Shown here piece after piece: positions 10,548 through 19,724 of a stretch of DNA of 64,000 bases. Location: positions 1 through 64,000 of the forward strand of contig JBHLKM010000003.1 of assembly GCA_048886685.1 (NCBI GenBank), written 5' to 3'. The notes below the pieces were generated by a model. The model saw only the letters and a list, made by a program, of their open reading frames with translations, made no database searches and was not told the DNA's origin. Positions within the stretch are counted from its first letter, which is position 1. Each line of letters opens with the position of its first letter. The position numbers were made by a program, and so were the translations under genes. The stretch comes from Candidatus Hodarchaeota archaeon. GTDB lineage: Archaea; Asgardarchaeota; Lokiarchaeia; Sigyniarchaeales; SOKP01.

Positions 10548-13500
10548 TTAACCACTAATCACTATTTGCTGTGCAATAACGAGAATGGTAAAAATTATTA
10601 ATAAAACAAAAAGAGTGAGAAGAGTATAAAACCTCCATTTTACTGCTATTTTTTCTCTTTCCTCCTTTTTGCGAAGATATACTAATATCATAGATCCTAC
10701 TACAGAAATTGTTATAAGAATTGTGGGCATATACCAATTTGGGTTTGTTATAAACATAAATAAGAAAGATATAACACTCCCCCAACCAATAGAGAGTCGC
10801 TTTATCCTTATTTTAAATTTAACATCTGGGTCATCCGATTTTGGAGAGGGAATTATTAAATATAGTATTCCGAAAATTACTATCATTAATAAAATTGAAT
10901 GAACCCAATCGAAAATCTGTAAAGAAATAATTCCAAAAAAAACCGCCAGAGACAAACTTAAAAGAATCCATAATATTTTGAAATAGGTTTTTAAAAACTT
11001 AAATAACGCCTTAAATGCGTTAGATAATAACAACTTGATTTTTTGAAAGAATTTGACAATAATATCAACTAACTTATTGAAAAACTCGCGTAATTCTTCT
11101 AATAAAAATACAAAGGGATAAGGTATAATCATTAAAGGAATAAAAATGAATAAACCCTGCCAAAAATGAGATAATTCTGAAAGAATTAAACTCAGTAATG
11201 AACAAATAGCTGCCCAAAATGCAAACGCTTTTAATGAATGTTCCTTAAACGGTTTAACAATAAACACTGAGAAAACTACAAATATTAATAATGAAACACT
11301 TAGGTCTAAGGTTAAGGTTGTTGTGGGCACCATCCTTAAAAGTATAAAGATATCAATAGAAAGAAATAGCCCAATTAACGAAAAAGAAGCCTTTCTAAGA
11401 GTTTTTAATGGTTTTTCTTTCAAAATCCCAACATATTTATCTACAAAAGTGAAGAAAAACAAGATTACAAGTGATAGAATCATTAAATTTAGTACCTGAA
11501 ATGGATTTAATGTGACATAATATATTGGCCAAGAAGTAAAATTTAAGTAAGTTATAGAAATTAGATAGAATTTAATTCTCTTCTTATTTGAAACGATATA
11601 GTCCAAAAATTCTAATTGTTTGAATAGGTAGGCACTCTCAATTATTAATATAAATACAATGAGAGGGATAGACGAAAATAAATATTCTATGAAATAAATA
11701 ACATAAAGCCAAAGGAAATAAGTTGTTGTAAAAACTATAATGAATATCCAAGAAATTACCTTGAAGTAATTGGCAAATCTCCCCAAAAATTTCAGTAGGG
11801 TCAAATCAATTATCATTAGAACATGAACTATTAAGCTCAAAATTAATAATATTAATAGAAATTCGACATTGGATAAAATTAGAGTGTGAAGCAAAATGAG
11901 ACATAAATCTACATAGAAAATTGTTCCTAAAACATGATTTATATTAGATCTCCTTTTTTTAATAGATTCAACCTTGCTTGGATAAAACTGATTTAATGAA
12001 TTACAAAAAGAATAATTTGTATAAAATTGCATTAAGATAAATATTAGTACTTCTATGCTTAACAAGATTTGATATTGTGCTACAAGATTGTTTAGAATAA
12101 AAATAATCATTAATGAAATTATAAAAAAACTAATAGTATGGATTAAAAATGCATAACTTTTCCTTATTTTCTTTAAGGAATAAATATCTAGCAATGTTAA
12201 GGAGAAAAACAACAATTGGGATATTAAGATACTCTTAAAAACATCTACGAATTCAATCATTAATCCAAATATTAGTAGACTCGTTTCAAAATACAATAAT
12301 ATTATAAGCAGGGAAAAGGTTTTTAGCAAAAACTGTGGTTTTTTAGTCTCAAAAAATAATACATTAAAGAATTTAACAGTTTTAAAGGATAAGCATGTTT
12401 CAATTAAAATAATTAAGATAATTGAGAAAAAGTTTAAAATACTGAATATATTAAAGATTATTAGCCAATTGATGGCAAGTAAGCATTGAAATATTGTAAA
12501 AAGAATAATTTCGATTGAATATTTCAATTTTGTTTCAATTTTAACAAAATTACTTAAAATATATAAAGGTAGAACAGAATTTTGGAATAACAATAAATAA
12601 TAGGTAAATCCTCTTAATTCTTCCAGAAGGTTCACTATTCCCTCAGTAATTAGAAAACCTAAGTAAAAAGAACCACTAATAAATAAAGTGTAAAAAAGTA
12701 TTATACGTCCATTAGAAATTTTCTGTTTTGAAATATCTATTCCCTCTCCAAAAGAGAGAGAAATTTGATTTAAAAGAGATATTAACACTAACAACAAGAA
12801 TATATTTGAGTAAAACATAAAAAAGAAGAAACAGAGGGTGTTGCTGAACACTAACCAAGACCAAAATATAAATTTATTTCGGGTTGAATGAAATAAAAAG
12901 TAAAAAATACTTCTATCTAATACAGAGGATTCGAAAAATACAACCCCACTAACAATTAAAAGAAATCCATAAATCATAATTACAGTACTCATCTCAATAA
13001 AGAACATAAAAAGTAAAACATTAAGATATAATGCGATAGGAATAAGGAGGTATAAAACATAACAAATTTTATTGAAATAAAGAAGTGGATCTCTTATATT
13101 TAAATCAATTTCTGCAATTTCGATATACTTTAAACTAACTAATATAAATATTGGCCAAATTACCAAGAAATCAAGAATCTGATAAATAATGATAATTTCG
13201 CTAAATAATAGCTGAGTTGTTAAGAAAGGGATTATGATTGAAATAAATATTGAGATAAAAACAGAATTAAGAAGAAAGCTAGTGAAATTCAGCATTTTTA
13301 TCTGGTTTTTCTCCTCATATATCTTCAATAAGCTGTTTTTTATTTCTTCAGATTCATCAATCGTAATAGTTTTGAATACATTAATTAGAATCTGGAAAAA
13401 AATAATATATATCGTTGAAAACGCTGAAAATGCTAATAACCAAACATTCCTAATTAATTCGATTGAAATTAATAGTTCTAATAAAGGTAATGTTAAAGGT

Positions 13501-19500: not shown

Positions 19501-19724
19501 TCATAGGATTTAAGGAAAAATAGAAAGGCGAACATGAATGTTATAACTGAAAGTGATAAGGCAAAATACTCACTAAGACCGAATACCCGAAAAATCAAAA
19601 AACCAACAAAACCTATAGCAAATGGAGAAATGACTAAATAGAAACAAAACCACCAAAGTTTTTGAAGTAATTCTGTGGCTTTTTTATACTTTTCTTCCGA
19701 ATCTACACTATTTTTTGATTTCAT
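10548..19724 (-). CDS. Giant (3058 aa) polytopic membrane protein of unknown function with internal repeats
   Basis: 9.2-kb uninterrupted ORF; continuous alternation of ~20-aa hydrophobic segments and Lys/Arg-rich linkers; no soluble catalytic motif recognised. Confidence 0.9.
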   Translation of the reverse strand: MKSKNSVDSEEKYKKATELLQKLWWFCFYLVISPFAIGFVGFLIFRVFGLSEYFALSLSVITFMFAFLFFLKSYDKYRIKSFFLNKENNLVARIHITFSISIISFIVTPIFILIAPDVSFDLLPLISFALLYNIVYYYYRFKPIAFFNIAEREYKHGTDFKLTLKQPYNFIVSINYIAHLCFLSITSRTKLSWIFALATNLVLYVITILSTKKICNGIKESINNNRSFLIELTEFKRKFVISITSLVFILLIQIPLMIVIIFRLLGTPKSLDILNSSFLSVIFLFLYLKALFYTNYYHSNRIEVYKASIKGDSYKDKVPARSVKYQKYNAYLSVILVVLIATFAFLIQITWLILLILPFFFIFSYSEQKAGICPKNYNKFIFLLNSIAILISVAFGLFSEISLNYQFLIFVLSLYFTLQIFVKTDYFSKENVIVIQNLLATASSTIIAYSIVYEFALFSSDPTFNVMIHGLLISIISLITFYIFYSWYFSQQRLKLFRSCLFVNIILIELFIFLLINLSTSFLMEVLIISSLLFPSVLLFFIFVNYTLGVFSREDFVKISYYLLWVLIFDVFLSILLTNLTKYVIWTLDFLFLSVFGQVNLKFGSKIETVKESVVKKFAKLNSYFMTIELIALFFFFFYSVALVQFFLHDKIILSTYFSFFIMTILANVLSRLDVVFSSSITLKINILALFFSTGLAFYYTFIFTLGTFNVCSFPFISLFITLYFPFYFLLRKRIYETFIRKGLLINSALLAIFITLIPIFINLEFSRTGPINILSVINYTLLIFPSMFLFIGFTDYLLKLLSQKQFLILSFYLLWVLITDLFVIIFLVSLTEFVFLVLDFLFLSTFSQLNLMFGVKLEKVKDSKGKFYSNINSYIITGEIFALSFFFFYTIVLVEIIFSVYISLLIITFLVNLISRKELIFSKSLTFKINIITLTFSAGLAYYYSFLLTFNTFYVLLIPSLCLFSILFLPIYYTLRMKIYEKVAYRLLLVDCILIGIFLMLIPTFINLEVNGLGFFNEKNLLPTINNTLYIAFGILAFTYYLLRKYKIKEIYISRVLQSQIFIEIIIAGTTVFYYLFRLIPGTFFSILFPLIAASCFLYLPSIFSYRKRYFKENIVKKFILANSIVLSVLITLIPTIIGLELKQIGISIISATSLIILFLVLNFLELIGRWYKVKEKWTSFFKLFKVFVWFSISIFVSYLIFSYVPIDLSISIIFFTFFILNIYTLRLLFNYSSELRIVNYLKEFLLYGLTFSFSFLIITLIRLSIVLTLMPSLLYSFNILWYLGFFLLISLLLIQFFKSKVQIKYLKINNGIEFVSWSILKIVFCIFISLIFSYSINAQVISFSLAFTFFTPITLYYFKKLNMFSEKNQLIIKRFMLGIFLISLFILYIDLFYQLTTNVIFFNDYVFLYVSFILANLILYLYYFLLRYNTILQIDSTLQIFGFYFSSFILFFSLLYIYWIILIIPVFLAIILLLYRRSLNLIFRFISYFLLSYVIFIDLLSIFNNFEILGGFNLFLFGFLTSTYLLTLISILLFSIWLNFKRNNNLEKFVLYSLLSLLSFTLLNSYTNVLILYNITISLFIFLLFMGIYFYRQENEYYKWFIKPCILLLIFDFISFISYFILFNNPIYISFNPILTFTLTTSITGFTFVLLYNKAPARFRKISFYFTLFAINICFPTFLYFCIVSPFPSLFGDPIPIIIVINVAVFLFYLCIGIYQWRISWAIWKSGWYVWNILPFVNFLIIYQGLRGVDVLGNSIQLFGVYDFSGSSIISIIICSLFFLPVIYSKIKKYFLNIVFIVWAESLFLMYWISQNLFAGDKLLTNLSFVLFSVILLMPLLVGLKFWKIASIFWIIPLTVINATFLFFYFISIGVSLEITISIDILVIGLFLIVYSFFPNIRSIGIILILSYFVVLLGIFLTIYFILYSVILDIFFSINVSFIVMGFGLFSSKPLKLENKSINYILSWILIVNFSWLTFNTFNLIPRMGIFAFFLSLTVFGGSFFIFNRYRMKFRINRAFPFLIVAIGTSSSITSLFWTFFNLSPYLLITVFSGIFLIFLYSLIIEYRYFLWALIPIPLTLPLLELLISIELIRNVWLLAFSAFSTIYIIFFQILINVFKTITIDESEEIKNSLLKIYEEKNQIKMLNFTSFLLNSVFISIFISIIIPFLTTQLLFSEIIIIYQILDFLVIWPIFILVSLKYIEIAEIDLNIRDPLLYFNKICYVLYLLIPIALYLNVLLFMFFIEMSTVIMIYGFLLIVSGVVFFESSVLDRSIFYFLFHSTRNKFIFWSWLVFSNTLCFFFFMFYSNIFLLLVLISLLNQISLSFGEGIDISKQKISNGRIILFYTLFISGSFYLGFLITEGIVNLLEELRGFTYYLLLFQNSVLPLYILSNFVKIETKLKYSIEIILFTIFQCLLAINWLIIFNIFSILNFFSIILIILIETCLSFKTVKFFNVLFFETKKPQFLLKTFSLLIILLYFETSLLIFGLMIEFVDVFKSILISQLLFFSLTLLDIYSLKKIRKSYAFLIHTISFFIISLMIIFILNNLVAQYQILLSIEVLIFILMQFYTNYSFCNSLNQFYPSKVESIKKRRSNINHVLGTIFYVDLCLILLHTLILSNVEFLLILLILSLIVHVLMIIDLTLLKFLGRFANYFKVISWIFIIVFTTTYFLWLYVIYFIEYLFSSIPLIVFILIIESAYLFKQLEFLDYIVSNKKRIKFYLISITYLNFTSWPIYYVTLNPFQVLNLMILSLVILFFFTFVDKYVGILKEKPLKTLRKASFSLIGLFLSIDIFILLRMVPTTTLTLDLSVSLLIFVVFSVFIVKPFKEHSLKAFAFWAAICSLLSLILSELSHFWQGLFIFIPLMIIPYPFVFLLEELREFFNKLVDIIVKFFQKIKLLLSNAFKALFKFLKTYFKILWILLSLSLAVFFGIISLQIFDWVHSILLMIVIFGILYLIIPSPKSDDPDVKFKIRIKRLSIGWGSVISFLFMFITNPNWYMPTILITISVVGSMILVYLRKKEEREKIAVKWRFYTLLTLFVLLIIFTILVIAQQIVISG
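16640..18130 (-). repeat. Intragenic tandem duplication of a ~251-aa, ~8-TM module
   Basis: LLWVLIFD...LDFLFLS...NLKFG...FFFFY...KINI...GLAFYY...LIPIFINLE recurs as LLWVLITD...LDFLFLS...NLMFG...FFFFY...KINI...GLAYYY...LIPTFINLE. The anchor Trp codons (18030-18032, 17277-17279) are 753 nt apart. Boundaries approximate. Confidence 0.85.

Follow-up and report, generated by a model that had tools for sequence, protein, structure and literature searches.

A previously undescribed family of giant hairpin-repeat membrane proteins in Lokiarchaeia, with a 97-transmembrane-segment member that may serve as an intramembrane scaffold

The stretch of DNA analysed here (the window) consists of the first 64,000 nucleotides of contig JBHLKM010000003.1 from the assembly of a Candidatus Hodarchaeota archaeon of the class Lokiarchaeia. 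An uninterrupted open reading frame (ORF) on the minus strand at positions 10548-19724 encodes a protein of 3,058 amino acids (aa) that is composed almost entirely of transmembrane segments (TMs), and the gene is single-copy in the 4.4-Mb genome. The gene is genuine and conserved in Lokiarchaeia, and it represents a previously undescribed family of extreme architecture; literature searches found no paper on the family and none for DSAG12_00898, its orthologue in the cultured P. syntrophicum MK-D1. The product would be, with a probability of about 0.4, an intramembrane scaffold of low copy number that has no catalytic role and handles lipids or membrane integrity. No characterised protein was found near the 97-143 TMs, at one per 31-34 residues, of this protein and its longest relatives, Piezo having 38 and Arc3A 35.

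The initial annotation had described the product as nearly all transmembrane, which is borne out by an intact ORF whose topology lies far above that of shuffled chains. Hydropathy segmentation delimits 90 hydrophobic segments in the protein, more than four times the 20 of the next ORF. Since shuffled chains yield 76-89 segments, the raw count reflects mostly composition, is weak evidence by itself and was rejected as a stand-alone argument. The topology score (2169 versus 1613-1690 for shuffled chains), the distribution of Lys and Arg in the loops (inside:outside 199:12 in a two-state topology model versus about 125:35 in shuffles) and the hydropathy periodicities of about 32 and 60-65 residues (about four to five times those of shuffles) are all far beyond chance. 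Curation with AlphaFold helices and repeat homology gives 97 TMs, or 48 hairpins plus one, with the N terminus inside and the C terminus outside (N-in/C-out), and the independent two-state model returns the same number and orientation. An earlier estimate of 85-95 TMs was therefore of the right order, though slightly low. The pairing of helices by a short loop, with basic linkers between the pairs, is apparent from the curated topology, in which outer and inner loops have median lengths of 7 versus 16 residues and contain 16 versus 192 Lys and Arg residues. As the longest outer and inner loops have 20 and 41 residues, the protein has no soluble domain, and no catalytic signature was found, in keeping with the initial annotation. 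The amphipathic helix noticed near the C terminus is real, spanning residues 2874-2913 and possessing the highest hydrophobic moment of the whole chain, but it is followed by five TMs rather than four.

Repeats with 4-TM and 8-TM periods are found in two arrays, where they were detected by fragment and profile comparison; a whole-length self-comparison of the protein with BLAST showed none, and outside the two arrays no repeats are detectable at the sequence level. The N-terminal array has an 8-TM period of 245-251 residues and a 4-TM sub-period of 119-131 residues that reaches to about residue 1200. Residues 498-742 share about 47% identity with residues 743-990, and the similarity of the two copies is still detectable in the DNA, which confirms the module of about 8 TMs in 251 aa counted previously. 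Across both arrays the periods are about 120-131 and 245-256 residues, and the C-terminal array (about residues 2270-2870) is the older of the two. Homologues differ from the 3,058-aa protein by blocks the size of array units at the same two places, several of them carry recent duplications of their own (up to 88% identical), and the C-terminal array has been expanded independently in relatives. Such gain and loss of four-helix or eight-helix blocks constitutes repeat-protein evolution within the membrane. From the uniform hairpin pattern we infer that the solenoid extends over the full length of the protein.

Conservation is concentrated in three regions, namely the N-terminal cap (N-cap), the core (residues 1550-2000) and, within the C-terminal cap (C-cap), its last loop; in most pairwise comparisons the core evolves more slowly than any other region (coordinates are given in Table 1). 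The invariant residues of the core are W1726, W1733, P1737, N1740, P1783, W1801, W1845, W1852 and P1897, and there is no catalytic signature in this Trp- and Pro-rich region. Well-kept polar residues inside TMs are N/D1704, E1803, E2442, E2480, H2529, H2634 and D2791.

Table 1. Features of the 3,058-aa protein and its gene, in positions of the window
Feature	Position	Strand	Basis or remark
Gene for the 97-TM hairpin-repeat protein, 3,058 aa, single copy	10548..19724	-	ORF, topology model
N-cap, residues 1-313, 8 TMs	18786..19724	-	First helix and TM1 match Thorarchaeia giants
N-terminal repeat array, residues 498-1200	16125..18233	-	8-TM units built of 4-TM units
First copy of recently duplicated 8-TM unit, residues 498-742	17499..18233	-	Repeat comparison
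Second copy of 8-TM unit, residues 743-990	16755..17498	-	About 47% identical to first
Conserved core, residues 1550-2000	13725..15077	-	Invariant Trp, Pro and one Asn
Trp-rich kinked helix TM55 (W1726, W1733, P1737, N1740)	14481..14570	-	Most conserved motif
C-terminal repeat array, residues 2270-2870	11115..12917	-	Periods of about 122 and about 250
Cytoplasmic amphipathic helix, residues 2874-2913	10986..11105	-	Curated topology, AlphaFold
C-cap, last five TMs	10548..10982	-	E3021 and R3031 kept across Lokiarchaeia and Thorarchaeia

The family is widespread within Lokiarchaeia. Database searches returned 88 homologues of 1,770-3,750 aa, many of them collinear over their full length, and those with names come mostly from Promethearchaeota or Lokiarchaeota; when 1.84 billion representatives were searched with a profile, only 53 proteins were returned, with no identifiable tail into other groups. 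The core is present, almost always in a single copy, in 115 of the 159 genomes of the class, one of the 115 belonging to a second order. Lengths of about 2,500 to 4,905 aa occur among the homologues, full-length ones having about 81-143 TMs, and all nine complete chains that were modelled have an odd number of TMs and a cytoplasmic N terminus. Three closed genomes contain the gene: that of the cultured P. syntrophicum MK-D1 (DSAG12_00898/WP_147661999.1; 3,940 aa, about 121 TMs), that of Ca. Harpocratesius repetitus (MCF2139232.1; 4,296 aa, about 129 TMs), and that of the cultured Ca. L. ossiferum, which has two copies (NEF87_002906, with 3,146 aa and about 95 TMs, and NEF87_003094, with 4,905 aa and about 143 TMs). 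All of these orthologues match the core profile at E < 1e-50, share the same ends and the N-in/C-out orientation, and are annotated as hypothetical. The view that this is an undescribed family of repeated TM hairpins is supported, and the family occurs in two cultured Lokiarchaeia. The insertion and folding of so long a transmembrane chain pose a question, and orthologues in two cultured Asgard archaea make it testable. The chance that the gene is an artefact, arising from an assembly fusion or a spurious AT-rich frame, is negligible. The gene is indeed AT-rich (GC content 0.256) and composition alone gives many hydrophobic segments, but the collinear homologues, the ordered topology and the intact genes in GC-richer relatives argue against this explanation, and the intact copies in the three closed genomes refute it.

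The gene can nevertheless be lost, as indicated by a 96%-complete genome (G330, contig C73) in which the syntenic site keeps only the last 100 residues (L124:10398-10700) and a second GH4-like gene and an M20 peptidase gene occupy the place of the remainder. Several genera mostly lack a match, and searches with the core did not find the gene in several near-complete Lokiarchaeia genomes. In three genomes the first 313-314 residues, which correspond to the N-cap, are encoded by a separate adjacent gene (split-gene loci are L060:5258-13814, L067:5580-14145, L068:5893-14543, L085:1227-9836 and L117:4319-10468). Two further splits, each seen once, lie behind residue 2,065 and, in a gene from Thorarchaeia, behind residue 645; both may be due to sequence errors. 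Two genomes have a second match to the C-cap right behind the first (G350:C10:70983-71426 and G344:C191:739-1728), which suggests a tandem duplication of the C-cap in these genomes.

One Lokiarchaeia genome without a core match encodes a fusion in which a NosD/beta-helix surface protein is followed by an anchor helix and then 17 TMs, the first four to six of which match the C-terminal array (E 2e-9 with BLAST and 7e-16 with a profile). This fusion was seen only once, in a metagenome-assembled genome; its locus (L122:3-7255; G336:C76) spans an N gap and probably encodes more than 2,400 aa. On these matches, array units do occur without the core, and in their position behind a surface beta-helix protein they behave as portable structural modules.

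Variation of length in blocks, from about 2,500 to 4,905 aa, makes a closed-fold enzyme or carrier hardly plausible. The topology with its charge asymmetry, the tolerance of natural gene splits, the array units found without the core and the restriction of the core invariants to Trp, Pro and one Asn also support a scaffold. In such a scaffold, hairpins packed side by side would build up a long ribbon or solenoid running within the membrane plane. The arrays would act as extensible spacers whose exact length is immaterial, and the caps and core would be putative binding sites. By analogy with Arc3A, the lipid-facing surface, the basic inner face and the amphipathic helix may bind or sequester lipids and thereby lend stability or organisation to a membrane patch, with neither a gated pore nor catalysis. 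A role in lipid handling or membrane integrity is favoured because Arc3A is the closest characterised protein of such build. Arc3A (P. aeruginosa PA5114, DUF2339/PF10101) has 35 predicted TMs, the TM number varies in its family, it has no catalytic residues, and it prevents the accumulation of lysophospholipids by an unknown mechanism (PMC8926400). The protein described here resembles Arc3A and other DUF2339 proteins in being very large and polytopic with a variable number of TMs and no catalytic residues, but it has 97 versus 35 TMs and is archaeal rather than bacterial. If its function were Arc3A-like, membrane protection by giant polytopic proteins would have a second example, this one from archaea.

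Several observations weigh against the scaffold with a lipid or membrane-integrity role. Arc3A protects ester lipids, whereas those of archaea are ether lipids; the gene neighbourhood contains no consistent partner; and the conserved polar and charged residues inside TMs, along with the kinked TM55, could likewise belong to a translocation path. Neither Pfam nor the genome-wide search demonstrates homology to DUF2339: PF10101 did not match the 3,058-aa protein or three relatives at E <= 1 and had no match at these genes genome-wide, and DUF2157 (PF09925) did not match these genes in five genomes. In an atlas of protein clusters, DUF2339 and DUF2157 are the nearest named clusters by features, though weakly (0.82 for DUF2339); both also appear among the matches by shape, where that to DUF2339 is likewise weak (template-modelling scores of 0.34/0.40 over 295 residues, root-mean-square deviation (rmsd) 7.0). 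The link to these families raised in the initial annotation thus amounts to a weak resemblance, and remote kinship with DUF2339-type proteins may be conceivable. No neighbour of the Arc3B type (PF13163) lies in the window, a weak test given that Arc3B is restricted to Gram-negative bacteria.

Outside Lokiarchaeia, a weak match (E 0.005) leads to all-TM giants of Thorarchaeia, which have 2,030-2,300 aa and 62-77 hydrophobic segments and occur in 25 genomes of one family (labelled Thorarchaeota in the source records). Profile-profile comparisons of N-cap with N-cap and of C-cap with C-cap gave a probability of 91% each (E about 1e-6; 47 and 128 columns, respectively), whereas crossed controls with the profiles of the opposite caps stayed below 1%. 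The in-register window ranked first in four of four whole-length scans, in one of them at only 21%, and the amphipathic module also matches the Thorarchaeia giants with a probability of 72%. In a joint alignment of the two classes R3031 is invariant and E3021 is at least 90% conserved. A held-out hidden Markov model (HMM) of the Lokiarchaeia N-cap placed Thorarchaeia proteins above decoys (three sequences, E 3e-4 to 3e-3), whereas held-out C-cap HMMs did not, and the core is not recognisable in the giants (best probability 18%). Taken together, the cap comparisons make common ancestry of the two groups likely and, if so, the family is older than the split of the two Asgard classes. Among the other Asgard classes, the joint profile retrieved no member that was credible, a result that holds for this query and does not amount to absence, and the Lokiarchaeia queries found none in Asgard classes other than Lokiarchaeia and Thorarchaeia. 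Weak matches elsewhere in the phylum (G252, G133 with the core profile, G183, G189 and G238) were rejected as unrelated small or other proteins.

AlphaFold models of residues 1540-2120 (predicted local distance difference test (pLDDT) 87, predicted template-modelling score (pTM) 0.61) and of residues 2271-3058 (pLDDT 92, pTM 0.63) consist of helices apart from a single beta-hairpin in an outer loop (residues 1758-1766), and in the former the TM55 helix is broken at its conserved Pro. High pLDDT combined with a pTM near 0.6 is suggestive of elongated stacks, of which such values would be expected. It is possible, though rather unlikely, that the core forms a groove in which kinked TM55 with N1740, N/D1704 and E1803 move lipids or lipid-linked substrates, as in a translocase or scramblase, with the arrays being accessory. 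In favour of this function are the break in the helix, the polar residues within the membrane, the slow evolution of the core in most pairwise comparisons and the fact that the core is the part identifying all members in Lokiarchaeia. The core, however, contains no invariant charged residue, and its motif is undetectable in the Thorarchaeia proteins that have both caps. Neither an ATPase gene nor a substrate gene travels with the family, as the adjoining ABC operon is conserved only within the genus, and there was no match to a transporter family in Pfam or NCBIfam, including secondary transporters and the antiporter-like subunits of complex I and Mrp.

A full-length match to a characterised family was sought and not found: Pfam, NCBIfam and PDB sequence searches with the 3,058-aa protein gave no match, and Foldseek gave none at E <= 0.001 for either model (best E 0.006, template-modelling score < 0.3). 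The top, non-significant Foldseek rows are soluble alpha-solenoids (TPR, HEAT), which share with the protein the stacked helical hairpins, the conserved caps and the variable number of repeats; every helix of the 97-TM protein, however, crosses the membrane. A wide structural search, in which the long models were searched whole, returned generic three-helix bundles only (Z about 9-10), the rows spanning just 80-100 residues of NuoK/MrpF-type bundles (e.g., Z 10.1 and rmsd 2.6 over 85 residues), and Piezo was not among the structural matches listed. Coevolution among the N-cap, core and C-cap, which bears on ring closure, gave a signal equal to noise, the alignment being too shallow (effective number of sequences 42). 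Giant proteins of Omnitrophota have up to 331 predicted TMs in chains of more than 100,000 aa with large soluble domains (bioRxiv 10.64898/2026.06.07.730766). They share with the longest members of the family more than 100 TMs per chain, but at about one TM per 370 residues versus one per 31-34 they have more predicted TMs at about a tenth of the density.

Piezo1 and Piezo2 have 38 TMs, with nine 4-TM units in each blade. The 3,058-aa protein resembles them, by analogy only, in its chain of 4-TM units and its distinct C-terminal region behind an amphipathic helix, which makes it conceivable that blades of 4-TM units converge on an oligomeric pore of C-terminal helices to form a mechanosensitive channel. 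An invariant Arg and a near-invariant Glu in the C-cap and the apparent low abundance (see below) would be compatible with such a channel. It is very unlikely, however, since the extracellular cap and the beam of Piezo are missing (the last loop is cytoplasmic and has 17 residues, and the longest loops have been given above), conservation peaks in the middle of the chain and not at the C terminus, and Pfam and PDB sequence searches revealed no similarity to Piezo. Two separate arrays around a central core, with a freely varying number of units, are a further difference from Piezo. By the defining features tested, the protein is not a member of Piezo or of DUF2339, and the mechanosensory role suggested initially found no positive evidence.

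The initial annotation had also proposed that the protein shapes the protrusions of Lokiarchaeia. An abundant, curvature-generating coat with this function would fit the presence of the gene in the two cultured Lokiarchaeia that form protrusions, with two copies in L. ossiferum, and the combination of short outer loops, long inner loops and an amphipathic helix could impose curvature. In the proteome of L. ossiferum, for which the published version reports 3,061 detected proteins, neither orthologue is among the approximately 2,000 most intense proteins listed (bioRxiv 10.1101/2025.11.30.690169). The two orthologues correspond to GNAMCCOK_02936 and GNAMCCOK_03124 in that study, as its identifiers map to NCBI accessions by an offset that is constant over the interval and was checked on a 40.2-kDa neighbour. 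Hydrophobic proteins are under-detected in the proteome, and the result suggests low abundance in L. ossiferum, not silence. Absence from the most intense proteins argues against an abundant coat, as do the near-complete genomes where the gene was not found, the 100-aa remnant in one genome, and the restriction of the family, with these queries, to Thorarchaeia among the other Asgard classes. Protrusion shaping found no positive evidence, and a coat of this kind is improbable. An MK-D1 RNA-seq run contains all sampled words of the gene, but its contigs total the whole genome, so that carry-over of DNA is possible and the run was not used; the portion of the supplements of PMC9834061 that was covered has no entry for the orthologue. 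A broader proposal is that the Lokiarchaeia and Thorarchaeia proteins form an old Asgard family of length-tunable intramembrane solenoids (about 62-143 TMs) which shape or corral membrane or sense tension by a mechanism unrelated to that of Piezo, BAR or reticulon, and so contribute to cell architecture. This would be an unlikely outcome.

In the window the gene is neighboured by an ABC operon and a gene for a GH4 glycosidase. Neighbours are only locally conserved, an aminotransferase gene and the GH4 gene within the taxonomic family and the ABC operon within the genus. In the genus of MK-D1 an SPFH/flotillin gene (DSAG12_00897 in MK-D1) is located just upstream on the same strand, preceded by a gene for a 3-TM protein; equivalent SPFH/flotillin loci are L051:2226-4441, L040:12961-15080 and L081:17965-19188. 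At 14 Thorarchaeia loci that contain the start of the gene, a zinc-ribbon/CFI-box-CTERM gene adjoins it divergently. The encoded protein has 163-190 aa, a double zinc-ribbon and a CFI-box-CTERM (NF041770) end (L103:9935-10471, L113:10609-11118 and equivalents). These neighbours bear on whether the protein could be a docking platform or assembly aid for membrane or surface proteins, with caps that bind conserved partners and arrays that set the spacing. The termini are the only parts recognisable across the two classes, and both the fusion of array units to a surface beta-helix protein and the flotillin and zinc-ribbon neighbours would agree with this role. Docking is nonetheless unlikely, given that neighbours vary between lineages, that the CFI-box gene of the present genome is on another contig, and that the fusion is one case in a metagenome-assembled genome.

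The related CFI-box domain of this genome is encoded on contig C41 at 4797-5825. Directly downstream of the gene are a five-gene branched-chain amino acid (Liv-type) ABC operon (5093-10370, minus strand) and then a gene for a HEAT-repeat protein (3627-5081, minus strand); a functional link to the operon was rejected as the linkage is confined to the genus. Terminator and promoter signals downstream of the gene did not rise above chance. A 639-aa NosD/beta-helix surface protein with several relatives in the genome is encoded at 24929-26848 on the plus strand of the window. At 21434-21958 a gap without a listed ORF separates the aminotransferase and GH4 genes; it recurs, with a length of about 520-640 bases, in many relatives, and a small gene, an RNA or regulatory sequence may lie in it.

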